The notes below the pieces were generated by a model. That model saw nothing but the letters and a program-made list of their open reading frames with translations, made no database searches and was not told the DNA's origin. A stretch of 64,000 nucleotides of DNA from Pseudomonadales bacterium (GTDB lineage Bacteria; Pseudomonadota; Gammaproteobacteria; Pseudomonadales; DC-out160). The stretch lies in the NCBI GenBank assembly GCA_019090455.1, contig JAHRWA010000008.1, positions 8,083 to 72,082 of the forward strand, in the 5' to 3' direction. Both the position numbers and the translations under genes were made by a program. Of the stretch, positions 6,419 through 61,993 are shown piece by piece (within the stretch, counting starts at the first letter, position 1; each line of letters begins with the position of its first letter).

Positions 6419-6456
6419 GTAGCACAACCCCCTATTTTTCTGTCTGTTCTATTTTT

Positions 6457-8735: not shown

Positions 8736-8829
8736 TGGCGGAAGAGGTAGGAGTCGAACCCACCAAGCACCTTATCAGCGCCTCACTGGCTTTGAAGGCC
8801 AGGCACCCCACCGGGGACATCGCTCTTCC
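8736..8829 (-). tRNA. selC: tRNA-Sec (anticodon UCA)
   Basis: The minus-strand sequence is GGAAGAGCGATGTCCCCGGTGGGGTGCCTGGCCTTCAAAGCCAGTGAGGCGCTGATAAGGTGCTTGGTGGGTTCGACTCCTACCTCTTCCGCCA. It has the anticodon arm CTGGC-CTTCAAA-GCCAG (UCA), a long variable arm, the T-loop TTCGACT and an encoded CCA. The overall layout matches E. coli selC, and the gene lies directly downstream of selA-selB. Confidence 0.93.
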
Positions 8830-8849
8830 GAGATTGATCGGAATCCAGT

Positions 8850-10784: not shown

Positions 10785-12199
10785 AACAGTTTCTCTCTTA
10801 GTTGTGCCAATTGTGCGACAAAATCCGCCTCTTGTTCCAAACAGCGCAGATCCAGTAATACGCCACCTTTGTGTAGGCGCCCGATCACCGGTATGGGTAA
10901 TGCTCGCAACGCTTCAATCAGACAGCGAAGTTCACTGTCGATGGCTTTTAACGGTTTTATTTCCAAGCAGGCACTGGCAAGGGTTTCGATGGGTAGTGCA
11001 CCACTGCCAATTTGGCTGAAGCCGGGGACGACGGTAACGACAAAGCGGGGTGTTAACGCTGCGCTCAGTATCGGCGCTAGGTTTGTTGCTTGGCTTTGAA
11101 TTATTTCTAAGGGTCGGGTCAGTTGCCTTAAGGTGGGAAGCTCTTGCAGCAAGGCTTCAGGATTACGATACAGTTTTAGCACCTCACTTAATGCCGCAAG
11201 GGTCATTTTGTCTAAACGCAAAGCCCGCTTAAGCGGATTCTTTTTTATTTTCTCTATCAAGTCTTTGCGTCCAGCAATAATTCCCGCTTGGGGGCCACCA
11301 AGCAGTTTGTCACCGCTGAAGGTAATGATATCGGCTCCATTGTTGATGGAGGTGGCAGCGCTTGGCTCATCCGGTAAACCCAAACTGGAAAAATCGATGA
11401 GGCTACCGCTGCCTAAATCGATGACAAAAGGTAAATTATGCTGACCTGACAGATGTGCCAAATCCACTTCACCCACCGATTTGGTGAAACCCTCTACGCG
11501 GTAATTACTGGTGTGTACTTTCATTAATAAAGCCGTTTGTGAATTGATGGCCTGTTCATAATCTCGCAGATGGGTGCGATTAGTGGCGCCAATTTCTACC
11601 AACGTACAACCGGAGCGTGACATAACCTCAGGGATGCGAAAGGAGCCGCCAATTTCCACCAACTCTCCCCTCGATACCGGCACCTCTTGGTTCATGGCCA
11701 GCGTGTTAAGCACTAATAATACTGCGGCGGCATTGTTATTGACGGCGGTAGCGGCTTCAGCGCCGGTGAGTTCACAAATCTGCGCTTCAATATGGGATTC
11801 GCGGTCGTCGCGTTTGCCGGTAGAGAGATCGAATTCAAGATTGGAAGGGGATTGAGCAACCATCACCATCGCCTCTATCGCCCTTTGCGGCAGAGATGCC
11901 CGCCCCAGATTGGTATGTAAAACAGTGCCGGATAAATTGAAAACAGGGCGTAGGCTGCATTTATCCATGTTCTCTAATTTCGCGGTAGCAGCAGACTGAA
12001 TGGCCTCAATGGAATGTGCCGGGGAATCTCCCGCTGTAATGGCCGTACGCAACAGCGACAATTCCTCACGAAGTGCTGCGACAAATTGTTCATGGCCCCA
12101 GCGTTCTATTAATGGTTGCGATTTTTGCAACAGGCTATCGATTCCGGGCAACTGGCGAAACAGCGCTTGAGTTGTCGAGTTGTCACGGCTCGTTGACAT
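10781..12199 (-). CDS. selA: L-seryl-tRNA(Sec) selenium transferase SelA
   Basis: The 472-aa protein carries a PLP-lysine motif, FSGDKLLGGPQAG. Its position upstream of selB-selC, with ATGA overlap coupling, fits selA. Confidence 0.9.
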   Translation of the reverse strand: MSTSRDNSTTQALFRQLPGIDSLLQKSQPLIERWGHEQFVAALREELSLLRTAITAGDSPAHSIEAIQSAATAKLENMDKCSLRPVFNLSGTVLHTNLGRASLPQRAIEAMVMVAQSPSNLEFDLSTGKRDDRESHIEAQICELTGAEAATAVNNNAAAVLLVLNTLAMNQEVPVSRGELVEIGGSFRIPEVMSRSGCTLVEIGATNRTHLRDYEQAINSQTALLMKVHTSNYRVEGFTKSVGEVDLAHLSGQHNLPFVIDLGSGSLIDFSSLGLPDEPSAATSINNGADIITFSGDKLLGGPQAGIIAGRKDLIEKIKKNPLKRALRLDKMTLAALSEVLKLYRNPEALLQELPTLRQLTRPLEIIQSQATNLAPILSAALTPRFVVTVVPGFSQIGSGALPIETLASACLEIKPLKAIDSELRCLIEALRALPIPVIGRLHKGGVLLDLRCLEQEADFVAQLAQLREKLF

Positions 12200-31612: not shown

Positions 31613-32371
31613 TTAAATAATCACAACAGTATCATCGTCAGTTTTGATTGCCTTTGCCGAATATTGCCAATGGTGGGATATATTGTTCGTGGTCAGTATT
31701 GTTTGTGGTGTATCAAATTCCGCTATGACACCCTCATTTAATATGGCGCAATGATCGCAGTAACGCATGACTTGATTTAAATCGTGTAGAACTGCGATGA
31801 CTGTGTAGCTCTGTTTTTGACATAACTCTTTACATAAAGTCAGAATGTTGTGTTGTTGACCTAAATCCTGAGCGGCGGTGGGTTCATCCAACAGTAATAA
31901 TGGTTGTTGTTCGGCTTGGCTTAATTGAACTAATACTCGGGCCAGTTGCACTCTTTGTTTTTCGCCACCGGAAAGTGACGGGAAGGCTCGCTCCGATAAA
32001 TGCAGGCAGTGCGTAGCGCGCATCTTTTTTCGTATCAGTTGTTTGGCATCGGATTGAGTTATGTTTAAGGGCGTTAAGCCTAGGGCAATAACTTCGAATG
32101 CGCTGAAAGAAAAACTGAGTTGACTGCTTTGTGGTAACACCGCTAAATGTTTCGCGCGATGGAGTCTAGGCCATTGTTTGAGGTCTTGACGATGTAATTC
32201 GATGTTTCCTTGGTAGTTTATTTCGCCGGCAATAGATTTAATCAGTGTTGATTTTCCTGATCCATTGGGTCCAATTACGGCAACAAACTTGCCGCTATTG
32301 AAATGTAGAAACGGGATGTGGAGTAAGGTTTTCTTTCCACTCTGGCAGTGTAGTGAGCGAATCTTTAACAT
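31613..32371 (-). CDS. hmuV: Heme/iron-complex ABC transporter ATP-binding protein
   Basis: The Walker A motif is GPNGSGKST, the signature is LSGGEKQR and the Walker B motif is LLLLDEP. The gene is in an operon with a FecCD permease and a hemin-type binding protein. Confidence 0.85.
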   Translation of the reverse strand: MLKIRSLHCQSGKKTLLHIPFLHFNSGKFVAVIGPNGSGKSTLIKSIAGEINYQGNIELHRQDLKQWPRLHRAKHLAVLPQSSQLSFSFSAFEVIALGLTPLNITQSDAKQLIRKKMRATHCLHLSERAFPSLSGGEKQRVQLARVLVQLSQAEQQPLLLLDEPTAAQDLGQQHNILTLCKELCQKQSYTVIAVLHDLNQVMRYCDHCAILNEGVIAEFDTPQTILTTNNISHHWQYSAKAIKTDDDTVVII

Positions 32372-32384
32372 AGCATCTCTTGTC

Positions 32385-33407
32385 TTACAGAATGTGTTTG
32401 CGCTGTTGAATGAGTAGAAGAATAAAAAAAGGAGCGCCTAAAAGTGCAGTGACTAGTCCCACGGGTAATTCCGCTGGCTGGACTAGGAGTCGAGCGCTTA
32501 AGTCACCTATCACGAGTAGCAAAGCGCCGCACAATGCGGATAGTGGTAGTAAGCTATGGTGATTAGGGCCGCTAATGATGCGTATAAAGTGGGGGATAAC
32601 CAAACCCACAAATCCAATCACGCCCGCTGCCGATACCGCAATACCGACACCAATGGCAGTGAGTATTATGAGTTCGAGTTTCAGTTTTTCGACTGCGATA
32701 CCTAAATGTCGTGCTTCAGCTTCACCTAGTAGGAGAGCGTTCAGCGCTGTCGATTTTCTTCTAAAGCAATAGCTGAGAATGGCGAGAGTGATAAATGCGA
32801 GTATTAGGTTGGTATCATTTGCCCCATTTAATGAGCCCATTTGCCATAAGCTTAATTCCCGTAATTTCTGATCGTCAGTAAAGTAGCTCATGAAGCCGAT
32901 TCCAGCCCCAGCGAAGGATGAAATGGCAATGCCGGCTAGCAGTAAGACTAAAATTGAAGTGCCTTGTTTCGATTGGGCTAGGGCATAAACCAATAGGGTG
33001 CTAACGAGCCCACCTAAAAACGCAAGTAAAGGCACCGCCCAGATTTTCATTTCATTGGGGAAAAAGGCAATGGCGATTACGGCTCCGATTGCCGCCCCCG
33101 CCGATACTCCTATGATGCCTGGATCGGCTAAAGGGTTTCGAAATAGTCCCTGCATGACTGCACCACACTGAGCCAAAATAGCGCCGACGGCAATGGCTAG
33201 AAGTAGGCGCGGTAAGCGCAATTCAACAATAATGGCTTCTTGGTAAGTCAGTAGCTGACTGTATTGGCTTCCACTGAAATAATCTACTACCGATAATAAG
33301 CTTTCGTCTGCTGGCAATGGCATCGCACCCAAGCTCAATGATAATAAACTGAATATGACTAATGTCGTAGTCAATATCAGCGCGCAGGAATAAAAGGGAA
33401 ATCGCAT
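32385..33407 (-). CDS. hmuU: FecCD-family ABC permease (heme)
   Basis: The 340-aa polytopic protein has typical RNPLADPGIIGVSAGA and GPNHHSLLPLSAL..G motifs. Confidence 0.85.
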   Translation of the reverse strand: MRFPFYSCALILTTTLVIFSLLSLSLGAMPLPADESLLSVVDYFSGSQYSQLLTYQEAIIVELRLPRLLLAIAVGAILAQCGAVMQGLFRNPLADPGIIGVSAGAAIGAVIAIAFFPNEMKIWAVPLLAFLGGLVSTLLVYALAQSKQGTSILVLLLAGIAISSFAGAGIGFMSYFTDDQKLRELSLWQMGSLNGANDTNLILAFITLAILSYCFRRKSTALNALLLGEAEARHLGIAVEKLKLELIILTAIGVGIAVSAAGVIGFVGLVIPHFIRIISGPNHHSLLPLSALCGALLLVIGDLSARLLVQPAELPVGLVTALLGAPFFILLLIQQRKHIL

Positions 33408-34264
33408 TATCTTTTCACCACCTGTGATGACGCCTGTGCGAGGCGAATCGCTTCGTCTATGGCGGCGATGCTTAAGCCGGCAATAATGCTGCTACTGTTG
33501 ATCGAATAGATTGCATTGTTAATATTGGCTTTGGTGTGTTTGAGTATCGGGTTGGCTTCGAATAATTCCTGTATTGCCAAGTCTTGATTACGGCCAGCCA
33601 CGATAATTATGTCGGCATCCAATGCCAGTATGGATTCCGCTGATACGTTTTGATAATTGTTAAAATCCACTACATTTTTAGCGTTTAGTACTTCTATAAA
33701 GGCATTGGCCGTCGTGTCCAAGCCGCCCAAGCGTAATTTTTTTGGATCCATGCTAAGTAGAAAGGCGACTTTCTTCTTCGACCATCTATTGTTTTTCAGC
33801 TGCTGTTCTTGTCGTTCTAGTTTTTTGAGTAAGGGGCCGGCTTTGTTTGTTGTGTTCAGTGTTTTTGCTAGGTTTTGAATGTTGCTGCGTACATCACCAA
33901 TATTTTTAGAATTGACTAATTGTATCAACTTTATGTCGGTTTTTAGTAAAGCACTAATGACGGGAGGGGGGCCCATGTGGTCGCTACCAATAATATGGCT
34001 GGGGTTGAGGCTCAGCAAGCCTTCGGCAGAAAGGTTGCGATGATAACCAATGTTAGCCAATGCGCGGTAGTTTGTCGGAGTCTGGCTAGTGACATCGATG
34101 GCTATTAAATTTTCATCTTTTCCTAGTGCAAAAAGAAGCTCGGTAACCGATGCGTTAGTGCTAATAATGCGTGCGTCATCTGCTCGTGAATAATGGCTTG
34201 ATATCAATATCAGTGCCGAGAGTAAAATGCTAACTATGCGTGATTTGTACGTTGTCATCGTCAT
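33407..34264 (-). CDS. hmuT: Periplasmic hemin-binding protein of the ABC transporter
   Basis: The protein has a signal peptide and a cluster-A binding-protein pattern (RIIS.....TELLFALG....LIAID; AFLLS...). It is the first gene of the hmuTUV operon. Confidence 0.75.
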   Translation of the reverse strand: MTMTTYKSRIVSILLSALILISSHYSRADDARIISTNASVTELLFALGKDENLIAIDVTSQTPTNYRALANIGYHRNLSAEGLLSLNPSHIIGSDHMGPPPVISALLKTDIKLIQLVNSKNIGDVRSNIQNLAKTLNTTNKAGPLLKKLERQEQQLKNNRWSKKKVAFLLSMDPKKLRLGGLDTTANAFIEVLNAKNVVDFNNYQNVSAESILALDADIIIVAGRNQDLAIQELFEANPILKHTKANINNAIYSINSSSIIAGLSIAAIDEAIRLAQASSQVVKR

Positions 34265-34323
34265 TTATCTTGTATTGCGAATTGATTCATTAAGATTAAG
34301 GTAACAGCTTTAGTTAGGAATGT

Positions 34324-34343
34324 GAATAATAATGATTCGCATT
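34324..34343. promoter_or_regulatory. Fur-box-like sequence in the divergent hmuT / hutZ-like promoter region
   Basis: GAATAATAATGATTCGCATT is an AT-rich partial match to the Fur consensus. A second weaker match (GCGAATTGATTCATTAAG) lies at about 34275-34292. Confidence 0.45.
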
Positions 34344-34396
34344 TACAATACCTGGGTTGATGTTATATGCTCGTGGTATTCGAGAGGGAGATAAAA

Positions 34397-34921
34397 ATGA
34401 AAAGTATGAAGCTAGAAGAAAAAATAAAGAATGAAGTGTTAGATTTTATTGCTAGCCGAAAGAGTTTACATCTTGCGACGATTACCGGCGCAGGAGAACC
34501 CTTTATTTCTTACGCCCCCTTTGCTTTGGGTGACAATTGTATCTATGTGCTGATTAGTGAGATTGCGTTGCATGCGGTGAACCTTCAGGAGCTGCCGAAG
34601 GGATCTGTGATGATGGTGGAAGACGAAGGTACGGCGAAAGAACTGTTCGCTCGTATTCGTGTGAGTTACTCCGTGGAATCGCAAATGCTAGAGCATGACA
34701 AAGAGGAGTGGATAAAAGGAATCAAAATTATGGCGGCGCGTCATGGAGATAGAATCAAGAATTTGAGTGAGTTGTCTGACTTCAAACTTTTTAAATTGTT
34801 ACCCATCAGTGGGCGCTATGTTAAAGGATTTGGTCGCGCTTATAGTTTGGCGGGTGGTTCTCTTGCGGGTGATTTGGTTCAGCATCTACGTGATGGTCAT
34901 AAAAAACGGGCGGTTGCGTAG
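34397..34921 (+). CDS. HutZ/HugZ-like heme utilization protein (PNPOx-like split-barrel fold)
   Basis: The ATG follows GGGAGA. The pattern FIASRKSLHLATITGAGEPFISYAPF...RIRVSY is typical of this family, and the gene sits in a heme-uptake context. Confidence 0.6.
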   Translation: MKSMKLEEKIKNEVLDFIASRKSLHLATITGAGEPFISYAPFALGDNCIYVLISEIALHAVNLQELPKGSVMMVEDEGTAKELFARIRVSYSVESQMLEHDKEEWIKGIKIMAARHGDRIKNLSELSDFKLFKLLPISGRYVKGFGRAYSLAGGSLAGDLVQHLRDGHKKRAVA

Positions 34922-34931
34922 TGGATTTATT

Positions 34932-34973
34932 AGTTAGCTGTTATGGGTTAGGAGTTAGCTGTCATGGGTTAGG
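34932..34973. repeat. Two tandem 21-bp direct repeats upstream of the TonB-dependent receptor gene
   Basis: agttagctgttatgggttagg is followed by agttagctgtcatgggttagg (one mismatch). More TTAGG-containing sequence continues up to the start codon at 35013. Confidence 0.85.
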
Positions 34974-35012
34974 TATTAGGTTCTATGAGTTAGACATTAG
35001 GAGATATTAGGG

Positions 35013-37022
35013 GTGCGATTATTTGGAAAAATACATTGGGCATTCTGTTTAGTGTTGATATTCGGATCTGAAATATCACTCTCAGCACTCACCCTGGAGC
35101 TTGATAATGTGGTGGTAACGGGTACCCGCACTGAGAAATTATCTCGAGAGTCTCCCGTTCGTACGGAGGTGGTTAGCGAAGAGGAAATTCTCACCATTCA
35201 TGCTCGAGACCTTAAAGAAGCGCTGCAATACATGCCGGGACTTCAGTTACGTGAAATTCACGGTAAATCGGGTTACGAGGTGTGGATTCAGGGTTTAAGT
35301 GCCGATCGCGTTCTTATATTGCTTGACGGTATGCCTATCACACCCACAACGGGATCATCAGTCGACGTCACACAATTGTCGATGATTGATGTGGAACGAG
35401 TGGAAGTGGTTAAAGGAGCGACATCTGCTCTATACGGTAGCGCCGCTATGGGGGGAGTGGTCAATCTTATAAGCAAACCCATAGCGTCGGGATTGCACGG
35501 TGAAGTCACTGGGGATGCAGGCACGTATTTCAGTCAAAACCCCAACGGCGATGGAGCGGAACCTAGCGCCTACCACGGGCGTGTCAGAGGTAGCGTTGGG
35601 TCCGAACAATGGCGACTACGGTTTGCAATTGATGAGAATAGCGCTGATGGGATAGACCCGGATCCAGATACTTGGAAACAGCCTGGGGATGAAATTACGC
35701 GCCAGAATATAGGTGCTCGATTGGAATGGCTTCCCTCAAAACAAGACGCCGAAGCTTATTTGCAATTGAGCTCCCTAGATGAAACCACTTTGTCTCGTTT
35801 CGTTGCCGATAATAATGCCAATAACATTTTGGAAAATAACAGCAAAAGCGAAGCGTTAGACCGGTTACGGATTGCCAGTGGCGTGAGTTGGCAATCGCCC
35901 AATCGATGGCGGTGGAGTTTGGATGGGTTACAAGAAACCTTGACTGACGATACCCGAAAGGAAAACCACAGCTTTCAATATCATTATGATTTTCGTGAAG
36001 CTGATTTCGACATCGCACGTTATAGCTTGCGACTGGAATTGCCACAGCTCGCTAATCAAATATGGATGTTTGGATTCGATTTGAGTGACGAGGCATTAAA
36101 CCAAGTTAAGAGTGCCAATAGTATTAGTGCATTTGAATGTGAGCTGGAAGGTTGTCATACCGAACGTGATGGACAAGAGTTTTTTATTCAGGATGATTTG
36201 TTTTTCGGTGAAAACTGGGAGTTATTGATTGGTGCTCGTTATCAAAAGGATTCTGATTTTGGTAATCATTTTGCACCCAAGTTCAATTTACGATATCAGT
36301 ATATTGATGAGTTAGAGAAGAATATATTTTTCCGCTTGGGTTGGGGAGGAGGGTACCGAGTTCCTAACTTGAAAGAACGATTTTTCGTTTTTGATCACAG
36401 TAATCTAGGTTATATGGTGTTGGGCAATCCAGAGTTGAAACCCGAAGAATCCTCGAGTTGGCAGTTCGGTATAGGGATGCAATGGCAGGAGAACCTCACG
36501 ATAGATATTAATTTTTTCTACAATGATCTGAGTGATTTAATACAAGCTGATTTTGAAGAATTCGATTCCAGCGGTGTCCAACTTTTTCGTTATCACAATC
36601 TTGATAAAGCGCAAACAAAAGGTGCAGAAATGACAGGGCGGTGGCGTTACCGATCTAACCTGAATTTTTCATGGGGCTATACCTTTCTTGAAGCTAAAGA
36701 TAAGGCGACGGAAGGTGATTTGACCCGTAGGCCACAGCATCAAATGAGTTTGGGGATGGATTGGCTTGATATTATTCCCGGTTTAAAACTGAGTGTGCGT
36801 GCAAGAGGGCAAAGTCATGAATTGGTTGATAGTAACAATGATCGCCGTTCGCCAGGCTGGGTTTTAGTGGATCTAAAGTTAAATAAAAAAGTAAACGACA
36901 ATGTCCAATTATTTTCTGGTTTGGATAATGTTTTAAACCGGCAGCGGGATTTTGAAACTGCTTTTGATTTTGCTCCGGTTGCGGGCCGATTCTTCTATGT
37001 CGGTTTCCGAGTTAGATATTAA
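35013..37022 (+). CDS. TonB-dependent outer-membrane receptor (heme/hemoprotein type by context)
   Basis: The protein has a signal peptide and plug-domain motifs (VVVTGTRTEK, ...PGLQLRE..., ILLDGMPI, VEVVKGATSALYGSAAMGGVVNLI). The C-terminal beta-strand ends in an aromatic residue. Confidence 0.88.
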   Translation: MRLFGKIHWAFCLVLIFGSEISLSALTLELDNVVVTGTRTEKLSRESPVRTEVVSEEEILTIHARDLKEALQYMPGLQLREIHGKSGYEVWIQGLSADRVLILLDGMPITPTTGSSVDVTQLSMIDVERVEVVKGATSALYGSAAMGGVVNLISKPIASGLHGEVTGDAGTYFSQNPNGDGAEPSAYHGRVRGSVGSEQWRLRFAIDENSADGIDPDPDTWKQPGDEITRQNIGARLEWLPSKQDAEAYLQLSSLDETTLSRFVADNNANNILENNSKSEALDRLRIASGVSWQSPNRWRWSLDGLQETLTDDTRKENHSFQYHYDFREADFDIARYSLRLELPQLANQIWMFGFDLSDEALNQVKSANSISAFECELEGCHTERDGQEFFIQDDLFFGENWELLIGARYQKDSDFGNHFAPKFNLRYQYIDELEKNIFFRLGWGGGYRVPNLKERFFVFDHSNLGYMVLGNPELKPEESSSWQFGIGMQWQENLTIDINFFYNDLSDLIQADFEEFDSSGVQLFRYHNLDKAQTKGAEMTGRWRYRSNLNFSWGYTFLEAKDKATEGDLTRRPQHQMSLGMDWLDIIPGLKLSVRARGQSHELVDSNNDRRSPGWVLVDLKLNKKVNDNVQLFSGLDNVLNRQRDFETAFDFAPVAGRFFYVGFRVRY

Positions 37023-37069
37023 CAATAACGATTAACAAATGTCGATTAATTTAAAAAAGGGGATAAAAG

Positions 37070-38254
37070 ATGAAAGCGAGTCTTCGAAAATTAAGCTTAA
37101 TGTTACCGATAATCGGGCTAGTCGCTTGTGGCGGTGGCAGTGATAAGGTGGCGACTAATTTAGAAACCAATGATGACGGCCAATCTGGTTTGGTCAATGG
37201 GGGGTTGTCGAGTTTGCAAATTGACGCGACTGATTATGACACCTATCGCTACTTTAGTTTTGATACGGGGACAGTTTTGGATATTAGCGATGAACAAGCG
37301 CAAAGCTCAGTGGCTTGGCATTTGGCGTTTCGACGAGATTCCATTAAGTTGAATGGTGGAGCGTCAGGCGTTGGTGGAGTTGCTGGAGCATTGGTGGCGG
37401 CACAAGATGATTTTTACATTGACGCAGAAGCCGACGTGAATGTTTTTCTTAATGCGACCTTTGAATCAGAGGTTGAACACTTAGCAGCGACTTACAATGC
37501 GCCATCGGATCTTCAGGCAGATGTGTTAATCACGAATTTGCAAGGTTCCGGTGCAGTAGTGGGATCTTCTATTGATGGTGGTTGGTATTGGTATGATTTT
37601 ACCAACCATCAATTAAGCCTTAATGACAGTCATGGCTGGTTACTAAGAGCGGGAGAAGGTGACAGCTATGCGCGTTTTCGAGCAACGCAATTTGACTATC
37701 AAGTGGGTAACGACAACGACAGTGATAATTTTCTTGCGGTCACTTTTGAATTCGATACCCAATCAACAGATGCAGATGCTTTTGATGGTAGTGCTGAGTT
37801 TGTGACGCAAATTCCCGCTGCTGGAGGTGAAGTTTGTTTCGACTTTAATAGCGAATCGATTGTTACTTGCAATGGGTTGCTATGGGATTTGAAGGTGGGA
37901 ATTGATGGACGAGATTTCTTTTTAAGAGCCAATGGCGGGGTGAGCGGTGAGGGTAGTGGTGCCGCGAGTCGAATATTTGAATGGCAAGGTGAGTTGGCCG
38001 ATTACGCCAGTGCTTTTACCGATAGCTATTTCTACAGCGCCGACAGTACTGGTGGGCTGTTTTCAGATAATAGTTGGTATGCCTATAATCTCGATGGCAC
38101 TCATAAGTTGCATCCTAATTATCGCGTGTATTGGATAGATTCCGATAGTGCAGATGAAGCAGCAGATAAGTATCTATTACAGATTAGTGGCTATTACAAT
38201 GATGAGGGAGGGGAGAGTGGTTATCCCAATATTCGCTGGATGAAAGTGGATTGA
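37070..38254 (+). CDS. HmuY-like lipoprotein, apparently two HmuY-type modules
   Basis: The lipobox is IGLVACGG. The motifs YRYFSFDTG...VAWHLAFRRDSIKLNGGASG and later LLWDLKVGIDGRDFFLRANGGVSG match the W(D/H)LAF.R...NGG.SG pattern I associate with HmuY-family proteins. The gene lies immediately downstream of the receptor. Confidence 0.55.
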   Translation: MKASLRKLSLMLPIIGLVACGGGSDKVATNLETNDDGQSGLVNGGLSSLQIDATDYDTYRYFSFDTGTVLDISDEQAQSSVAWHLAFRRDSIKLNGGASGVGGVAGALVAAQDDFYIDAEADVNVFLNATFESEVEHLAATYNAPSDLQADVLITNLQGSGAVVGSSIDGGWYWYDFTNHQLSLNDSHGWLLRAGEGDSYARFRATQFDYQVGNDNDSDNFLAVTFEFDTQSTDADAFDGSAEFVTQIPAAGGEVCFDFNSESIVTCNGLLWDLKVGIDGRDFFLRANGGVSGEGSGAASRIFEWQGELADYASAFTDSYFYSADSTGGLFSDNSWYAYNLDGTHKLHPNYRVYWIDSDSADEAADKYLLQISGYYNDEGGESGYPNIRWMKVD

Positions 38255-39583: not shown

Positions 39584-40216
39584 ATGGGTGGTGAGTCCAG
39601 TAGTGATGTAAAGGGTAGTGTCAACAGCGCTAGAGTCTCGTTGGTAGCAACGGGGATTGCTGCAAAACTGTCGGAAGCGGAAAAGGTAGCGAGGCATTTA
39701 TTATTAGCGGCAAAAAATGCCCGAGCGACTATGGCGAGAGCAGGTTCTGATGCTGCGGGTTTAAAAGTCATTTCTGAATACTTCAGTGAATTGGCTAATT
39801 TGACTATTAGTCTTGCGAAGGAAATTAATCAAACGGCTTTCGATATTACGAAAGTCAGTGTTGTTGAGTGGCGTACTCGTGAGTTTCTTCATCAATTGGA
39901 AAATGCTGAAGAATTAGTAGGCTCGCCCTTTACCGGCCATCTGGGTAATATTAAGCATCAGGCTAAGAATAGTTATGATGCGCTCAGTGAAGAAAGTCGT
40001 GACCTGATGAAAGAGTTGGAAACATTGTTAACTGAGATTCAAAATCAAATGAGAGCGGTAGGCGTTGTCGTCATTACTTCTCGTTTGGAAGCTTCCCGTA
40101 CCGGGGCGTTTGAGGAATCATTAAATAATATGGCTGACAATATTCAGGAGTTATCCGATAAAATAAAGAACCGAGTTAACAGCTCCTATTCACTGTTAGT
40201 CAATGAGATAAGTTAA
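39584..40216 (+). CDS. Minimal soluble chemoreceptor-like protein (MCP signalling hairpin only)
   Basis: The 210-aa protein has no TM segment. LLLAAKNARATMARAGSDAAGLKVISEYFSELANLT aligns with the MCP hairpin-tip consensus LALNA.IEAARAGE.GRGFAVVA.EVR.LA. The rest is heptad-like helical sequence. Confidence 0.6.
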   Translation: MGGESSSDVKGSVNSARVSLVATGIAAKLSEAEKVARHLLLAAKNARATMARAGSDAAGLKVISEYFSELANLTISLAKEINQTAFDITKVSVVEWRTREFLHQLENAEELVGSPFTGHLGNIKHQAKNSYDALSEESRDLMKELETLLTEIQNQMRAVGVVVITSRLEASRTGAFEESLNNMADNIQELSDKIKNRVNSSYSLLVNEIS

Positions 40217-40231
40217 TATAGGAGGAAGCAA

Positions 40232-40960
40232 GTGGAATGCTTCACGATTTACGATGAGCGTCATCAGTGGCATATCTTTGGACGTGATCCAAACAAGCCA
40301 GATAAAATCATAGACACGAATCAATGTATGATCGTCAACGAAGGGCAAGCTATTTTGCTTGATCCGGGTGGGATTGAACTGTTTGCCCCCATGTTGGCTG
40401 CGATTTCGAAAAAGATAGAGGTGGAATCTCTTAAAACGCTGTTTGCGAGCCATCAGGATCCGGATGTCATTTCTTCTTTGGGATTATGGGATCAGGTGCT
40501 GACTGATGCAAAGCTCTATAGTTCCGGATTGTGGGAAGGCTTTATACGACATTTTGGTATTAATAACATTGAATATACCCAGGTAGCGGATTCAGGTTGT
40601 TATATTAATTTGTTGGGATTGAATCTTGAGGTGGTACCTGCTCATTATCTCCATTCATCTGCTAATTTTCACATCTACGATTCCGTTGCGAAGGTCTATT
40701 TCAGTGGTGACGTTGGGGCAGCATTGGAGGAGCCAGGGTCTGGTTTGTATGTCGAAGATTTTGACAGCCATATACAGTACATGAAATTTTTCCATCAGCG
40801 TTGGATGCCCTCGGAGATAGCAAAACAAGCTTGGATTAAGCGTGTTAGGGACTTGGATATCGAAATGCTAGTGCCACAACATGGCCGAATTTTTAAAGGC
40901 GAGGAGGTAGGACTCTTTTTGGATTGGTTCGAAAGTTTACCTGTGGGGATTGCAGTATAG
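40232..40960 (+). CDS. Metallo-beta-lactamase-fold protein resembling the di-iron domain of flavodiiron proteins / ODP (oxygen-binding di-iron protein)
   Basis: A GTG start lies 6 nt after AGGAGG and 15 nt after the stop of the MCP-like gene. Candidate metal ligands are SHQDPDV (HxDxD), PAHYLHS, FSGDVG and PQHG, spaced as in the FDP lactamase-like domain. Confidence 0.55.
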   Translation: MECFTIYDERHQWHIFGRDPNKPDKIIDTNQCMIVNEGQAILLDPGGIELFAPMLAAISKKIEVESLKTLFASHQDPDVISSLGLWDQVLTDAKLYSSGLWEGFIRHFGINNIEYTQVADSGCYINLLGLNLEVVPAHYLHSSANFHIYDSVAKVYFSGDVGAALEEPGSGLYVEDFDSHIQYMKFFHQRWMPSEIAKQAWIKRVRDLDIEMLVPQHGRIFKGEEVGLFLDWFESLPVGIAV

Positions 40961-41025
40961 AATTTAGGAGCCTATTTTCACTACTGATTAGCTAGTGATT
41001 GTTACTAAGGTGCAGTAGACTCGTG

Positions 41026-41056
41026 AAAAACGGCTTCCTCGGAAGCCGTTTTTTTG
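41026..41056 (+). terminator. Rho-independent terminator after the MCP-like/ODP-like pair
   Basis: AAAACGGCTTCC-TC-GGAAGCCGTTTT forms the stem and is followed by a T-run. Confidence 0.85.
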
Positions 41057-43208: not shown

Positions 43209-46200
43209 CTACTGCGGTGTCAATGACGAATCATCGGGTGGTATGACGGCTGCTGCAACTGACAGTTGTAGGAAGGCTCGGTAAGAATGATAGTCTTGCA
43301 TGTAATTATTTAAGAATGTGAGTTGTCGCGCAAAGGGTAGAAGGTAGGCCTGGCTTTGCGAAGGTGCTGGGTTGGGCATGGCATTGGGTGCGCCGGGCCA
43401 TTCCCAAAGCCAGTTCTCCCAATTGTCGGGTATGTTTTCGAATGCGGCAAGGGGGATTTCGGAGGTGGCGCCGCCTACGGCCACAGAGTGACAGTTTTGT
43501 TCCAAGATTCTCTTTGTCAGACTGTAGTAACGATCATATTGTTCCTGTTCGGCGGCATTTCCGATGGATAAGCCTGTTTGATGTAAAGCATAAGCGATAC
43601 CGAATATTTGGAAAAATTCACCTGCACTTCCCGCTCCATTTGCCAATCCCCAGGCATCACCATTTGACCCCTCTGTCATTAGGTCTGCTACATAATAAAT
43701 CATCGGTAATATTCGAGAGTCTGCGGTTCTTTCTAAATGATAGTGAAGGCCAAAGGAGCCGCCTTGTGCAAAGTATTCAAAAGGGCTGGCATTATTGTAT
43801 TGTGAGATGAAACCAGAATTACTGCCGTTGTCATATAAATAGCTCAGCATGGTCTCAATTTTTTGATCGAACCAAACATGAATATTCTCATCTTGGTAAT
43901 TTTCAAAAATGCTAGTCGTACGAGAGAGTATATCTAAGCCATTGCGTAAGGATTCATAACCACAGCTTGAGCATTTGGCGGCGAACCGGGCTGCCTCATA
44001 TAAAACGCCTCTTGCGCGATAATCCCCTGTTAAATAGTAATAGGTTTCTATTCCGCCCACATGAGAATAATCGATTGCACCGGCGTAACCCGACCAGCCC
44101 TGCTTTCCGTGACGGTGAACTGAGCCGACATGCCCCGGTGTATTATAAAGGATATCGTTAAGGTGGGAGCCCATGTTTTTATCGCCATAATGTATCATGG
44201 GGATATCCATTTGATGGATTGAGAAGGCCTCTGCATCAGTGAAGACATCTTGATTGATGGTTCGTAAAAACTGAACCCATAATTGGTTTAAGGGCTCTCC
44301 TGAATTAGCTGACCAACCGTATCGGCCTTTCTCTATCCAAGTAAAAACACCGTCATCACAAACTTGTCCGGTGCTGCGACCGTTACCGCAAAATAGTCCG
44401 CGAATATCGCCGTATTCCAGCATGCCGTACCAACCAAATTGTTTTCGCTGATTGAAGCGCATAAAATCTTCTATCACTTTTAGCTTTCGGTCTATTCGAA
44501 AGTGTACTTCAGAGCCGGTCTCAAGGTTGGCATCAAAATGAAAGGGGCCTACGCCCATGACAAGGCTGTCAGAATACCACTTGGCTTCGGCGAACATCAT
44601 CGGTGGGCCTGCATCGACACGGGTAGATTGATCATATTGGGATTGTGTATCAATGGGGCCGGTGCCTAAGCGCACGAAGAAGCGATCTGTTTTTGCGATG
44701 CCTTGAGATGACCTGTTGTCTCCAATATACCCAATTTCTTGATCTGGATTACCTGCGTGAACGATGTTGTCATAGCGCTCTAAATTTAAGATAAAACTAT
44801 CGTCTTTTGGATATAGCTCTACGTCTATGCCGTTATTTTCTACCGATAATGCTTTCGGAAAATTCTCAGCCATATCGCGTAAAATCACAGACATGTGGAA
44901 ATCGTCATTGCCTTTGGATACTCGACCGGCAGCTTGGCCTACTCGATTGTCGCCGTTGACGGAATAGTTGTCGAAGTCTGTTTGTAGCAGGGTTCCACTA
45001 TCGGTTGCGTCCGATTCAATAGTGGCAATCTCACCGGTAAAGGGGAGCTTGATACCGTATCCTTGAATTTTATCAGTGGATGCACCAGTAAAAATAAAGC
45101 TGTGTTGGAAATTGATATCCGAAGTTCCACGGGTAAATGTCATTCGCGTGACATAGCTACAATAGCCCATGCCGTCGTTGTCTAAATGGGTGCCGGATAC
45201 TTTGACAATCACCACTAACGGCCCTTGCTCTTCAATCGCAACATCTAATGTCCAGGGGTCATATAAATTGTGTCGTCCTTGCCCGCTGGCGTGAGATGCG
45301 GCTTGGTAGGCGGCAATAGGGTCGTTGGCTAAAGCGACTGAATCGCTACTCAGGTTTGAGCCCCAGTAGGTGACGTCATCCCGTTTTACCCAAGCGCCTC
45401 TTTTGATTCCATTGCTGGGCTCGTCGATAACCAATTCATCATTAATGAAGGCGCGATGTATTAGTCCGCCTGTTGTTTTTGGGATTTCAATATTCATGAC
45501 ACCGGTATCCACAGTGATAAAATCATCTGACTCAGTGGTGATGACGGGATTATTAAGGGCGTCTGAAGTCGAGGAAACGTTAAGGTTTAATACCGTTGAT
45601 TGGTATTGCACTAAATCCACTTGCGTGTTGATTAGCAGCCATCTGACGCTACCGTCTGGCCAAAAGGCTAATGGTTTAGTTTGAGTAGGGTAGACCGCAT
45701 CATTATTTTCGCTGATTAAGGAAATATGACTCGACTCTGAAAGTAGACCCTGTGGCATGGGGATGCCTGAACGGGCAAAGACGCCATTTTCACTGACACC
45801 GGTGAGTTCTTTAATTGTCAGCTGGGTGATGGTATCGCCTGAATTGACGGTAGATTGAATTGAAAATTCAACACTGTAATCGGTGCTGGTTAGGAGGCCG
45901 TCTAAAGTCTGGCATTTGACATAGAAAATGTAATGGTTCCCGGCTTCTAAATTGTTGATCGTGTGGGTGTGTTGAATGCTGTCTTGGGAGTCTAGATTTA
46001 GCGACATTTCACCGTAGTTAACATTCGGGTTTTGGTCGTATTGGCAGGCAGAGGCTGACGTTGTGGTGAGTGAAAGTAGGGTGTTAGCGCGTGCGGTTAA
46101 TATTCCTTTGGGTGACAAAAGACTAATGTTCAGAGTATCTGTTTCATTCTCCTCTTCCTCCTCTTCTTCCTCTTCTTCATTTGGATTATTAGCTCCACCA

Positions 46201-46409
46201 CCTGTATTACCGGAATCATCAGGGGTAGGTGTGGAGCCATTGTCGTTATCGATGTCGGTGTCTGTCTCTGTGTTGCCGCTAGTATCCGGATCTTGGGTGT
46301 TAGTTGAAGTGTCTCCTGTTTCTGGTTTGTCTTCTGTCCCGGTTCCACCGCAGCTGATGAGTAATAGAATGACGAGGAGGAGAGAGGGGATTTTTAACAC
46401 TGTATACAT
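43209..46409 (-). CDS. Large (1066 aa) lipoprotein of unknown function with an acidic low-complexity linker
   Basis: The lipobox is LLISCGG. An approximately 80-aa D/E/T/N-rich linker follows, containing NEEEEEEEEEN, and then about 950 aa with no motif I can assign. WPDGSVRWLLINTQ faintly recalls YetA/PcRGLX-like glycan-active proteins, but that is speculation. Confidence 0.7.
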   Translation of the reverse strand: MYTVLKIPSLLLVILLLISCGGTGTEDKPETGDTSTNTQDPDTSGNTETDTDIDNDNGSTPTPDDSGNTGGGANNPNEEEEEEEEEENETDTLNISLLSPKGILTARANTLLSLTTTSASACQYDQNPNVNYGEMSLNLDSQDSIQHTHTINNLEAGNHYIFYVKCQTLDGLLTSTDYSVEFSIQSTVNSGDTITQLTIKELTGVSENGVFARSGIPMPQGLLSESSHISLISENNDAVYPTQTKPLAFWPDGSVRWLLINTQVDLVQYQSTVLNLNVSSTSDALNNPVITTESDDFITVDTGVMNIEIPKTTGGLIHRAFINDELVIDEPSNGIKRGAWVKRDDVTYWGSNLSSDSVALANDPIAAYQAASHASGQGRHNLYDPWTLDVAIEEQGPLVVIVKVSGTHLDNDGMGYCSYVTRMTFTRGTSDINFQHSFIFTGASTDKIQGYGIKLPFTGEIATIESDATDSGTLLQTDFDNYSVNGDNRVGQAAGRVSKGNDDFHMSVILRDMAENFPKALSVENNGIDVELYPKDDSFILNLERYDNIVHAGNPDQEIGYIGDNRSSQGIAKTDRFFVRLGTGPIDTQSQYDQSTRVDAGPPMMFAEAKWYSDSLVMGVGPFHFDANLETGSEVHFRIDRKLKVIEDFMRFNQRKQFGWYGMLEYGDIRGLFCGNGRSTGQVCDDGVFTWIEKGRYGWSANSGEPLNQLWVQFLRTINQDVFTDAEAFSIHQMDIPMIHYGDKNMGSHLNDILYNTPGHVGSVHRHGKQGWSGYAGAIDYSHVGGIETYYYLTGDYRARGVLYEAARFAAKCSSCGYESLRNGLDILSRTTSIFENYQDENIHVWFDQKIETMLSYLYDNGSNSGFISQYNNASPFEYFAQGGSFGLHYHLERTADSRILPMIYYVADLMTEGSNGDAWGLANGAGSAGEFFQIFGIAYALHQTGLSIGNAAEQEQYDRYYSLTKRILEQNCHSVAVGGATSEIPLAAFENIPDNWENWLWEWPGAPNAMPNPAPSQSQAYLLPFARQLTFLNNYMQDYHSYRAFLQLSVAAAVIPPDDSSLTPQ

Positions 46410-60244: not shown

Positions 60245-61993
60245 ATGAGACCGGGTATGTCAGCTGCATTGCAAGGTTATGAGCGGTTAGAGAAAAGGGC
60301 TGAAGGGGGGATGGCGGTATTATACCGTGGAGTGCAAACTTCGCTGAATCGTCCTGTGGCGATTAAGTTTCTTAAGATGGATATTGCTGATAATGAACAT
60401 ATTCGTCGTTTATTTGATGCGGAATCTAGAATTATCGCGCGTTTGGATCACCCCAATATCATTCGTGTCATCGATAGGGGTGTATCCGCTAGTGGTCAGC
60501 CCTATTTTATTATGGATTTTGTAGAAGGGATCGACTTAAAGCAAGCACTGAAGACGGAAGAGATTAGTCACTCTCGAAAGTTACGAATGATTATTCAAAT
60601 TGCGAAAGCGTTGTCTTATGCGCATCGCAACGGCGTTATCCATCGGGATATTAAACCCGCCAATATTTTGCTGGACCAAGAACACAATGCGCGCATAGTT
60701 GATTTTGGCGTTGCTTTTTTTTCCGGTAGCACGCAAACGAATCCCTTAGTTGATGGCGCAACGGTAGGTACTCCGGCCTATATGGCGCCGGAACAAAAGG
60801 AGGGTGCTGAGTTTGCGACCGCAGTCAGTGATATATATTCTTTCGGTGTCATGATGTACGCCATTTTTACAGGAAAGACTCCAAAAGGAGATGCACCACT
60901 AGTCCATGTTTTGAATAAAGAAATCCCCGAGGGTTTGTCGAAACTAGTGTGGCAGTGCATGTTGGAAGAACCTAGTAAACGGCCACAAACAGCAGATGAA
61001 GTTATTGCTCGGGTACTGAGTGTCATCAAAGGAGATCATCTTCAGCCACAACAAAGGGAAAAGGCAAAGAAGTTTACGCTACGAGCGCATGAAAAATTTA
61101 TCCTGCTAGATGTTCTGAAAGAAGATGATTATAGCGCGGTTTATCTCTATGAAAATAGAGAAGATGGGGGGTTATTGATTTTGAAAAAATGTACTTCCGA
61201 CGCGCTAGGCTATCAAGAAAACAAAATGCTGGAGCACTTAACGCATACCAATATTGTTAATGTTGTAGGTGTGACGAAGAACGATAGAATCTTTATTGCG
61301 ATTATGGAATATTTGAATGGCGGTAGTTTGCGGTCCCGACTCGCGCGTCCGATGACCTTAAAGCAGTTTTTACCCATTGCTTTGGCTATTGGTCGAGGTC
61401 TGAGTTTTGCTCATAAGAATCGAGTTATACATGGAAATTTGCGACCTGCTAACGTGTTATTTACCAGTAAAGGTAGCGTGAAGATTACTGATTTTGGATT
61501 CAAGGAACATTATGAGGGTAAGAGGAAAAGAAACTGGTATTGTGTTGATGGCGAGCCAGTTTCCATTAAAGGCGACGTCTATTCTGGTGGTGTGATGTTT
61601 TACCAAATGTTGGTAGGTGTTAGACCGAAGTGGGCGTTGGGTCGTTTGACATCTCATAAACGCTATAAAGAATTACCGGAATCCATGCGTCGATTACTGA
61701 CTGTAATGTTGTGTCGAAAGGCGAGTGATCGTATTGTCAATTATGACGAAGTGCTTAATGAATTGGTGCAGATAAAAAATGCAAGTTCGGGAGAGGCTGT
61801 TGCCAGGAGTGATGAGTGCGTCACGATCGTTGATATGCCTCCCTCTAAGTCGAAGATAATGGTTAAGGTTATGGGAGCGATTTTTTTTGCTTTGGGTATG
61901 GCGGGGGCTTATGCGGGATACTGGCAATCTGTCAATGGTGACTTGCTACCGATGCTAGTTAACGTTCTCAATATTTTTGGTGTTGTAAATTAG
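60245..61993 (+). CDS. Membrane-anchored Ser/Thr protein kinase with tandem kinase and pseudokinase domains
   Basis: Domain 1 has VAIKFL, HRDIKPANILL, DFGVA and TPAYMAPE. Domain 2 (about residues 290-500) has HGNLRPANVLF (the catalytic Asp position reads Asn) and ITDFGF. A C-terminal TM helix (IMVKVMGAIFFALGMAGAYAGYW) is present. Confidence 0.8.
   Translation: MRPGMSAALQGYERLEKRAEGGMAVLYRGVQTSLNRPVAIKFLKMDIADNEHIRRLFDAESRIIARLDHPNIIRVIDRGVSASGQPYFIMDFVEGIDLKQALKTEEISHSRKLRMIIQIAKALSYAHRNGVIHRDIKPANILLDQEHNARIVDFGVAFFSGSTQTNPLVDGATVGTPAYMAPEQKEGAEFATAVSDIYSFGVMMYAIFTGKTPKGDAPLVHVLNKEIPEGLSKLVWQCMLEEPSKRPQTADEVIARVLSVIKGDHLQPQQREKAKKFTLRAHEKFILLDVLKEDDYSAVYLYENREDGGLLILKKCTSDALGYQENKMLEHLTHTNIVNVVGVTKNDRIFIAIMEYLNGGSLRSRLARPMTLKQFLPIALAIGRGLSFAHKNRVIHGNLRPANVLFTSKGSVKITDFGFKEHYEGKRKRNWYCVDGEPVSIKGDVYSGGVMFYQMLVGVRPKWALGRLTSHKRYKELPESMRRLLTVMLCRKASDRIVNYDEVLNELVQIKNASSGEAVARSDECVTIVDMPPSKSKIMVKVMGAIFFALGMAGAYAGYWQSVNGDLLPMLVNVLNIFGVVN

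Follow-up and report, generated by a model that had tools for sequence, protein, structure and literature searches.

An ODP-family protein and its small, receptor-tip-derived partner in Gammaproteobacteria

Described here are two adjacent genes located on a 64,000-nucleotide stretch of DNA from a Pseudomonadales bacterium (GenBank assembly GCA_019090455.1, contig JAHRWA010000008.1, positions 8,083 to 72,082 of the forward strand), which in its entirety is referred to as the window. The second, gene B, encodes a member of the ODP (oxygen-binding di-iron protein) family, which displays the metallo-β-lactamase (MBL) fold. The first, gene A, encodes its partner, a soluble protein in which both halves are homologous to the signaling tip of the methyl-accepting chemotaxis proteins (MCPs). 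The two genes are almost invariably found together, and in several lineages they are embedded within che operons. Taken together, these observations favor, with moderate confidence, a model in which the pair constitutes a two-gene sensory operon, with the ODP serving as an O2/Fe sensor and the partner, a mini-receptor bundle, as the output adaptor to a Che pathway. The features under discussion, in window coordinates, are as follows.

39584..40216, plus strand: gene A (the partner, a soluble MCP-tip-derived double-tip protein), ATG start, 210 amino acids, TAA stop at 40214-40216
39713..39763, plus strand: tip motif 1 of the partner, KNARATMARAGSDAAGL, residues 44-60, aligned to MCP tips
40079..40123, plus strand: tip motif 2 of the partner, SRLEASRTGAFEESL, residues 166-180, duplicated and more degenerate, assigned from family conservation and HHalign
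40221..40226, plus strand: Shine-Dalgarno sequence AGGAGG of the ODP gene, within the 15-nt intergenic gap, 5 nt ahead of the GTG
40232..40960, plus strand: gene B (the ODP, MBL fold), GTG start, 242 amino acids
40451..40468, plus strand: HQDPDV, candidate first metal-ligand motif of the ODP, residues 74-79, identical in both solved ODPs
41025..41054, plus strand: intrinsic terminator at the end of the two-gene operon, with a 13-bp stem, a loop of 4 nt, and a U tract

The ODP, its partner, and their association across genomes

The gene B protein matches the Pfam family PF19583 (ODP family β-lactamase) with a score of 236.2 bits (E 3.8e-70, cutoff 27.2), and its residues 27-218 align with the full model (1-194 of 194). 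The only other Pfam matches are to Lactamase_B and, weakly, to Lactamase_B_2. The two crystallized ODPs are recovered with E values of 2.5e-62 (6qrq) and 6.1e-56 (6qnm). An earlier note on this DNA, made from the letters alone, had called the protein ODP-like, and these matches bear it out. The divergent HxDxD metal site that it had also proposed does not hold. The HQDPDV motif is the norm of the ODP family, given that it is identical in both crystallized members, and the site is invariant in 88 unique relatives, with either isoleucine or valine at position 79 in all 88. The segments AHxLH, SGDxGAA, FHxRxM, and PQHG likewise align identically with 6qrq and 6qnm. The candidate ligands, namely H74, D76, D78, H138, H141, D160, H188, and H217, are invariant both in the 88 relatives and in a 22-sequence alignment.

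The HxExDH motif, by comparison, is that of the flavodiiron proteins, in which a histidine occupies the position equivalent to residue 79 of gene B. Against the NCBIfam flavorubredoxin model, gene B scores 20.8 bits (E 1.5e-4), the cutoff being 635, and it is a single-domain protein of 242 residues that lacks a flavodoxin domain. At E<1e-20, the relatives of the ODP make up 2,902 clusters, many from marine Gammaproteobacteria, and several are labeled flavorubredoxin by JGI. The earlier note had asked whether the MBL protein might group with ordinary zinc hydrolases; given its full-length PF19583 match, it groups with the ODPs. Gene B thus encodes a regular ODP, and neither a zinc hydrolase nor a flavodiiron protein. 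By analogy it would be expected to bind O2 and iron, the ODP from Treponema denticola being an oxygen sensor for chemotaxis (PMC7666581).

Additional ODP paralogues were observed in two of the loci collected. In Ca. Methylomicrobium oryzae (L068:2343-5271), a second ODP of 259 amino acids, which contains HQDPDI and is more similar to the Treponema and Thermotoga proteins, is encoded 3 kb upstream of the pair, its gene overlapping the start of one for a 718-residue protein with GGDEF and EAL motifs. On this evidence, the ODP looks like a portable sensor, one wired to cyclic di-GMP enzymes as well. Another divergent paralogue is encoded on the minus strand of locus L022 at 8856-9623.

With respect to gene A, a word-indexed homologue search returned only gene A itself. 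An exhaustive phmmer search against 1.84 billion cluster representatives yielded 194 relatives, nearly all of 196-225 amino acids and aligned end to end. Since nearly all of the relatives are of about this size and no ordinary long MCPs are among the 194 matches, the partner is considered a compact family of its own. Its best PDB match by sequence is the soluble receptor Tm14 (single-sequence E 0.012). A profile of the family matches Tm14 (3g6b) with an E value of 5e-10, followed by Tm1143, PcaY, Tsr, and Aer, and is aligned in register with the tips of Tm14, Tm1143, and Tsr. Among 136 family members, 71 match the Pfam MCPsignal family (PF00015) at E<0.01, the best at 1.7e-8, and no other Pfam family is matched by more than three. 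Some members from Shewanella have already been named "chemotaxis protein" by NCBI, which lists gene A itself as hypothetical protein KUG82_01455 and gene B as an MBL fold metallo-hydrolase.

The most conserved residues of the partner family are those of tip motif 1: N45 (99%), R52 (94%), G54 (99%), G59 (90%), and F/L60 (99%). The segment NARATMARAGSDAAGLKVISEYFSELA corresponds to residues 45-71 of gene A. On the basis of their spacing, the five conserved positions are taken to be the equivalents of N381, R388, G390, G395, and F396 in Tsr. The partner contains no sensor, HAMP, methylation, or membrane segments. Indeed, the methylation consensus [ASTG][ASTG]xx[EQ][EQ]xx[ASTG][ASTG] occurs in only 3 of the 136 members, the window protein not being one of them, as compared with 4.5 ± 2.3 in shuffled sequences. 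Neither protein of the pair has a transmembrane-like segment, the maximum Kyte-Doolittle 19-residue means being 0.89 for A and 1.56 for B.

Several observations speak against gene A being a receptor. On its own it scores 25.6 bits against MCPsignal, below the cutoff of 34.6, and over residues 34-91 only. In addition, the positions presumed to correspond to F373, L380, and E402 of Tsr, which form trimer and CheW contacts, are not conserved in hairpin 1, and the presumed equivalent of E385 is lost there and kept only in hairpin 2 (E169, 99%). The earlier note had regarded failure against MCP-signal hidden Markov models (HMMs) as grounds for abandoning the chemoreceptor assignment. The single sequence does fall short; the homology at the profile level, however, is solid. 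As judged by sequence, gene A is firmly MCP-tip derived, yet it is not an ordinary MCP. Of the chemoreceptor hairpin described in the note, the tip homology and the absence of sensing and membrane regions stand, but the protein is not "only a hairpin" in that it carries a tandem double tip.

The association of the two genes was assessed by scanning one genome per GTDB species. No stretch of the partner alignment is conserved enough to anchor such a scan, and the ODP was employed as the anchor. At least 589 ODP loci were confirmed in the species-representative genomes. The counts of locus context given below refer to the best 80 of these, in which the partner was sought by a local HMM search. 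It lies immediately upstream of the ODP gene, and on the same strand, in 76 of the 80 loci, and in the other four the ODP gene is at a contig edge. The partner is therefore present in 76 of 76 evaluable loci, and the co-occurrence in other genomes that the earlier note had looked for is amply found. The same arrangement was seen in the first four relatives inspected and in three of three distant members of the partner family. Represented among the 80 loci are Oleiphilus, Hahellaceae, Methylomonas and other Methylococcaceae, Shewanella, Rheinheimera, Pseudoalteromonas, Enterovibrio, Grimontia, a Cycloclasticus symbiont, one Sneathiella, and one Myxococcota. The association of the two genes goes far beyond chance and is essentially obligate.

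Over 84 distinct loci, the gap between the partner stop and the ODP start has a median of 21 nt and is at most 79 nt in 83. The genes overlap in 19 of the 84 pairs, 13 of which are of the 4-nt ATGA type. The window pair had been described as translationally coupled. The tight operon spacing is indeed seen, whereas the coupling itself is something we infer. No gene is conserved beside the pair at all loci. Instead, the neighbors are lineage-specific, such as PilZ/DUF676 in L001, DUF2846/purEK/SodB in L002 and L005, and nitroreductase/DoxX in Shewanella. An apparent 690-residue partner "fusion" in the Myxococcota locus (L073) was rejected as an artefact of open frames in DNA with a GC content of 74%; the genuine gene encodes ∼205 residues.

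In locus L091 (GCA_052728735.1), the pair forms the 3' end of a complete che operon, the genes of which abut or overlap. Their order is REC-SpoIIE-HATPase_c_2, MCP, STAS, CheY, CheA, CheW, PAS/HAMP_2 MCP, CheR, CheD, CheB, partner, and ODP. Of the 80 loci, 11 have CheR-CheD-CheB directly upstream of the pair and in the same orientation, with a 12th cut by a contig end. All of these are of the Methylococcales type, Methylotuvimicrobium buryatense 5G among them, and in several the intervening genes encode a sensor-less MCP, a STAS protein, and a PP2C/anti-sigma-kinase module. The earlier note had thought that a gammaproteobacterial pair apart from che genes would be a new context. That view is not sustained, given that the gammaproteobacterial species with the pair number in the hundreds and that, in several lineages, the pair sits within che operons. 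Weighing against an output through a Che pathway are the ∼85% of the 80 loci that have no che neighbor and the absence of che or flagellar genes from the 64-kb window. Receptor genes are often scattered, apart from che operons.

The Methylococcales loci also bear on the nature of the output. It is possible, although rather unlikely in our estimation, that the output is not flagellar taxis and that the pair feeds a pathway of the Che2/F7 or "alternative cellular function" type. The read-out would then be a partner-switching module composed of a REC-PP2C phosphatase, a STAS protein, and an anti-sigma-type kinase, and the O2/Fe status would set a stress or stationary-phase program. Consistent with this, the Methylococcales pair follows CheR-CheD-CheB, a sensor-less MCP, STAS, and a REC-SpoIIE-HATPase_c_2 protein, L091 places the last of these with an MCP and STAS at its start, ahead of CheY-CheA-CheW and a PAS/HAMP_2 MCP, and the layout resembles that of the Aer2-containing F7 cluster, the cellular role of which is unclear (PMC7534058). 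Such a context is limited, however, to ∼12 of the 80 loci, the window provides no clue, and the one characterized ODP system controls chemotaxis (PMC7666581).

Other features of these che clusters were noted. Those at L037:2368-5257, L023:1774-5266, and L091:1-2623 encode an MCP of ∼385-400 residues with a signaling domain only. They also encode a STAS protein and a REC-PP2C-anti-sigma-kinase protein, which point to a Che-to-partner-switching output. In L037, the ODP gene is followed by one for a 1418-residue Hpt-multiPAS-HisKA-HATPase-REC hybrid kinase.

Predicted architecture of the partner

The second conserved block of the partner family has the pattern S/A-R-x-E-A-x-R/Q-A/T-G and resembles tip 1. 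Within tip motif 2, E169 is conserved in 99% of the members, A170 in 90%, R/K167 in 92%, and L/F180 in 98%. When the N-terminal half of the partner is compared with the C-terminal half using HHalign, residues 24-79 align on 144-199 with an E value of 1.9e-5, thereby placing RAG over RTG. A profile of residues 136-210 alone matches the Tm14 tip fragments 3ur1/4jpb (E 1.5e-5) in the tip register, and almost all of its other natural matches are MCPs. From these alignments, the partner is seen to carry two tip motifs that arose by internal duplication.

Models of the window partner and of P0272, a family member with ∼25% sequence identity, were generated with AlphaFold2 (AF2). Both are predicted to be all-helical, with predicted local distance difference test (pLDDT) values of 89.7 and 89.1 and predicted template modeling (pTM) scores of 0.81 and 0.79, respectively, and both show helix breaks at ∼112 and ∼172. 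The best fold matches in the PDB, as identified with Foldseek, are single-chain four-helix bundles of ∼196 residues (5vju, 8d9p, and 6z0c), with template modeling scores of 0.48-0.62 and root-mean-square deviations of 5.6-6.2 Å over ∼200 columns. Long hairpins, including 2ch7, 3zx6, and Smc arms, superpose on the models with deviations of 30-65 Å, and the 50 best fold matches do not include Tm14.

A mean-field direct coupling analysis (DCA) was performed on 250 unique family sequences (effective number, Neff, 206). Coevolving pairs between the first and second helices (50-67, 46-64, 53-63, 47-65, 32-78, and 25-88) describe a hairpin that turns at ∼56. Pairs between the second and third helices are 60-164, 64-159, 60-168, 63-165, and 69-161, and those between the first and fourth are 28-197, 44-187, and 28-201. 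By both tips, parallel pairs connect the second and fourth helices (60/62/64/67-183 and 67-180). An up-down-up-down bundle accounts for 32 of the top 50 pairs, when 12 would be expected (p 3e-9); the H1-H2 class contains eight versus 1.8 expected and the H2-H4 class five versus 1.8.

On the basis of these results, the partner is probably a single-chain four-helix bundle. AF2, Foldseek, and DCA support three predicted turns, and the tips, at residues ∼56 and ∼172 of 210, would both be positioned at one end. The best reading of the helices is ∼15-53, 58-111, 114-170, and 174-209. With both tips at one end, the single chain would therefore be a pseudo-dimer of the MCP tip. Three points detract from this model. 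First, according to DSSP the helix continues unbroken through tip 1 in both AF2 models (H15-111 and H4-106), with only a dip in pLDDT. Second, the Foldseek E values are weak, ∼3e-3, as is usual for all-helical proteins. Third, the DCA contact classes were set after the AF2 helix boundaries had been seen. Note that the absence of a DSSP break at residues 52-59 is discordant with the ∼6 Å bundle superposition and the coevolutionary turn at ∼56, and the first U-turn accordingly rests on fold matches, coevolution, and homology.

The unbroken helix at tip 1 would be explained if the partner were a conventional, very short soluble MCP, namely a long hairpin that turns near residue 112 and forms a Tm14-like homodimer, with the tip motifs being mid-arm relics. 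Tm14, the best PDB sequence match, is of nearly equal length (213 residues), and the H1-H4 and H2-H3 coevolving pairs fall on one anti-diagonal (i+j ∼225) that is also expected from a long hairpin. The H1-H2 and H2-H4 pairs, however, are impossible in such a structure, and the models fit the compact bundles far more closely than the long hairpins or Tm14. In addition, a pTM of ∼0.8 is atypical of an isolated 150-Å hairpin, and the conserved U-turn glycines, G54 and G59, would have no role in the middle of a helix. A long hairpin is considered quite improbable.

The bundle model invites a further, tentative proposal, which we entertain at somewhat less than even confidence: the partner family may be a natural single-chain pseudo-dimer that arose when a tandem duplication fused two MCP protomers, the hairpins of which then specialized. 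Hairpin 1 retains the equivalents of N381/R388/G390/G395/F396 and hairpin 2 that of E385, and it can be speculated that this complementarity reflects such a specialization. One face of the partner could engage CheW/CheA-P5 or a receptor trimer, with the other face dedicated to the ODP.

Proposed function of the pair

In the two-gene sensory operon favored here, the ODP would sense O2 and Fe(II) at a di-iron site, functioning as a cytoplasmic oxygen/iron sensor by analogy with the T. denticola and Thermotoga maritima proteins. It would bind the partner bundle, which in turn might dock tip-first, either at the CheA/CheW baseplate or within mixed receptor trimers. The O2/Fe state of the ODP would then alter the output of CheA, and methylation-based adaptation would not be expected on the partner element. 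Both the contact between the ODP and the partner and the coupling to CheA/CheW are inferred. The operon stands alone in this Pseudomonadales metagenome-assembled genome and would thus feed a Che pathway encoded elsewhere in it. That pathway could drive flagellar taxis or be Che2/F7-like, as is the one attached to the pair in methanotrophs.

As the earlier note had recognized, the pairing mirrors a published one. The T. denticola ODP (TDE2498) is genetically coupled to TDE2496, an MCP homologue without transmembrane and sensing modules that can modulate CheA, and deletion of the ODP changes the ordering of CheA in arrays (PMC7666581).

The least probable alternative, to which we assign little weight, is that the partner is a private regulator, stabilizer, or scaffold of the ODP that makes no contact with CheA/CheW, the ODP acting via another route or being a di-iron enzyme, akin to the flavodiiron proteins, with a role in scavenging or detoxification. 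The sub-threshold MCPsignal score, the loss of some canonical tip residues, and the many loci without a nearby che gene would be compatible with such a role, as would loosely recurring redox neighbors (AhpC/TSA in the window, nitroreductase and DoxX in Shewanella, and an Fe-SOD in L002/L005) and the ability of ODP paralogues to pair with other outputs, for example, the GGDEF-EAL protein of L068. None of these redox neighbors is conserved across the loci, however, the ODP has no flavodoxin domain for electron supply, the MCP tip signature is precisely where constraint on the partner is strongest, and the pair is repeatedly co-transcribed with CheA/W/Y/R/D/B.

An ODP combined with a sensor-less receptor is, as a kind of system, already known, having been published in 2019; the T. 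denticola and T. maritima ODPs with their receptors were reportedly treated by Muok et al. in PNAS that year. Literature searches on ODP, PF19583, and sensor-less receptors revealed nothing on the gammaproteobacterial pair. No description of the partner family or of its double-tip, single-chain architecture was found in the literature searched, in Pfam, or in NCBIfam, although the 2019 ODP paper may mention such receptors. The architecture of the partner is probably new.

Few O2 sensors for chemotaxis are known that use neither haem nor flavin; the ODP is one of them, and its study has been confined to two anaerobes. The present analysis places the ODP module widely among aerobic marine and methanotrophic Gammaproteobacteria, always with a distinct partner of 200 residues. 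The latter has been left as a "hypothetical protein" in the databases, and thus the annotation of hundreds of genomes is improved. Its attachment to Aer2-type che operons provides a handle on the unexplained Che2/F7 systems and bears on how methanotrophs position themselves in gradients of O2 and iron. If the partner is truly a single-chain mimic of the receptor-dimer tip, it would be the smallest natural unit that addresses CheA/CheW and a minimal, asymmetric, array-competent receptor present in hundreds of gammaproteobacterial species. It would also link a di-iron O2/Fe sensor to Che pathways, those of the Aer2-type Che2/F7 systems included. Being monomeric, such a protein would lend itself conveniently to structural and reconstitution studies of receptor-kinase coupling, and it would serve as a natural experiment on how the two protomers of a receptor dimer differ functionally.

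The locus and its comparison with known systems

The boundaries of both open reading frames, the 15-nt gap, the AGGAGG, and the terminator are all as the earlier note had described them. The terminator begins 64 nt past the gene B stop and has a ΔG of -19.7 kcal/mol (z -3.1 versus shuffles, with 1 of 200 shuffles folding as well). With the U tract base-paired as part of the stem, it was missed by a simple pattern scanner. The GTG start of gene B is consistent with the N-termini of 21 homologues, and purine-rich, Shine-Dalgarno-like sequences precede the ODP start in most relatives. A sigma-70 promoter scan upstream of 39584 gave no convincing candidate, with five matches versus 3.4 expected and none in the 163-nt upstream gap. 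Genes A and B share a reading frame, with the TAA and five further codons between them and their starts 648 nt apart, such that read-through of the stop would yield a partner-ODP fusion. The match in frame is probably a coincidence, since gaps and frames vary among the relatives.

In the window, as elsewhere, the neighbors of the pair are lineage-specific. A haem-uptake cluster and a DUF900 hydrolase are located upstream, and EamA, DUF2237, and AhpC/TSA are encoded downstream. The haem/iron-uptake cluster, at 31613-38254 and directly upstream of the pair, contains on its minus strand an ABC ATPase, a FecCD permease, and a periplasmic binding protein, and then a PNPOx-like protein, a TonB-dependent receptor, and an HmuY-like lipoprotein. 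Its position beside a putative Fe/O2 sensor is suggestive, but it is absent as a conserved neighbor at the other loci. An aa3 oxidase is encoded in the window, the host being an aerobic gammaproteobacterium.

Elsewhere in the window, selenocysteine machinery is encoded on the minus strand at 8737-12199 (tRNA-Sec, 8737-8830; SelB, 8850-10784; SelA, 10781-12199). The segment 55330-58637 encodes a 723-residue protein with DinB_2, FGE-sulfatase, and methyltransferase domains, an architecture like that of the ovothiol synthase OvoA, the gene of which is followed, with stop/start overlap, by one for a class I/II aminotransferase. The segment 15380-22125 holds two genes: one for an 1831-residue protein, the sole matches of which are C-terminal Big_9/cadherin-like and InlB B-repeat domains, and beside it, on the opposite strand, one for a caspase-family (Peptidase_C14) protein. 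A eukaryotic-type Ser/Thr protein kinase of 582 residues is encoded further along (60245-61993). The minus strand at 3038-6427 encodes a single nonribosomal peptide synthetase module (C-A-PCP, 1129 residues), near which is a flavin monooxygenase-like gene (1354-2913). Two downstream open reading frames, at 6457-7662 and 7752-8708, have no Pfam match. These may represent a small siderophore or metabolite locus. Finally, a predicted lipoprotein of 1066 residues with PcRGLX-like (rhamnogalacturonan lyase-type) domains, encoded on the minus strand at 43209-46409, has an acidic, low-complexity N-terminal region with a run of 13 glutamates.

Of the known systems, the closest are TDE2498/TDE2496 of T. 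denticola and the ODP/Tm14 of T. maritima (PDB entries 6qnm/6r9n, 6qrq/6qwo, and 3g67/3g6b). The ODPs share the same ligand motifs and are alignable over their full lengths (E 1e-56 to 1e-62). In all three systems, the ODP gene adjoins a co-oriented one for a small cytoplasmic protein, the homology of which is limited to the MCP signaling tip. The systems differ in gene order, that in the window being receptor and then ODP, and in their hosts, the window host being aerobic and those of the other two anaerobes. Moreover, the window partner belongs to a separate sequence family. The tip of Tm14, a long hairpin that homodimerizes, is found near residue 110; the partner has two tips within a predicted single-chain four-helix bundle. 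The flavodiiron proteins (FprA/flavorubredoxin) contain a homologous di-iron MBL domain with ligand spacing similar to that in gene B; unlike them, gene B has no flavodoxin domain, and its motif is H-x-D-x-D-[IV].

The gene set of L091 and the Methylococcales loci, with CheY-CheA-CheW-(PAS/HAMP MCP)-CheR-CheD-CheB and the pair, resembles those of the Aer2/McpB-type Che2 (F7) clusters of Pseudomonas and Vibrio. The window pair lies outside any such cluster. Aer2 senses O2 through its own PAS-haem, whereas in the ODP pair a di-iron protein apart from the receptor would do the sensing. The Aer2 receptor is cytoplasmic and responds to O2, and the cellular role of its cluster is unclear (PMC7534058).

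The double tip has a parallel in DosM (VC1403), the double-signaling-domain receptor of the Vibrio cholerae F9 cytoplasmic arrays, which to our knowledge is the sole chemoreceptor type described with two signaling tips in one polypeptide. Like the partner, DosM is cytoplasmic, lacks a transmembrane region, and has two signaling tips per chain; it forms an extended rod that bridges two baseplates, with a signaling domain at each end (PMC7534058). In the partner, residues 60-67, which follow tip 1, coevolve with residues 159-168 and 180-183, which flank tip 2, and this opposes the DosM geometry. Unlike DosM, the partner is a protein of only ∼200 residues that is always found with an ODP, and its two tips, according to both the models and coevolution, would lie at the same end of a short bundle.

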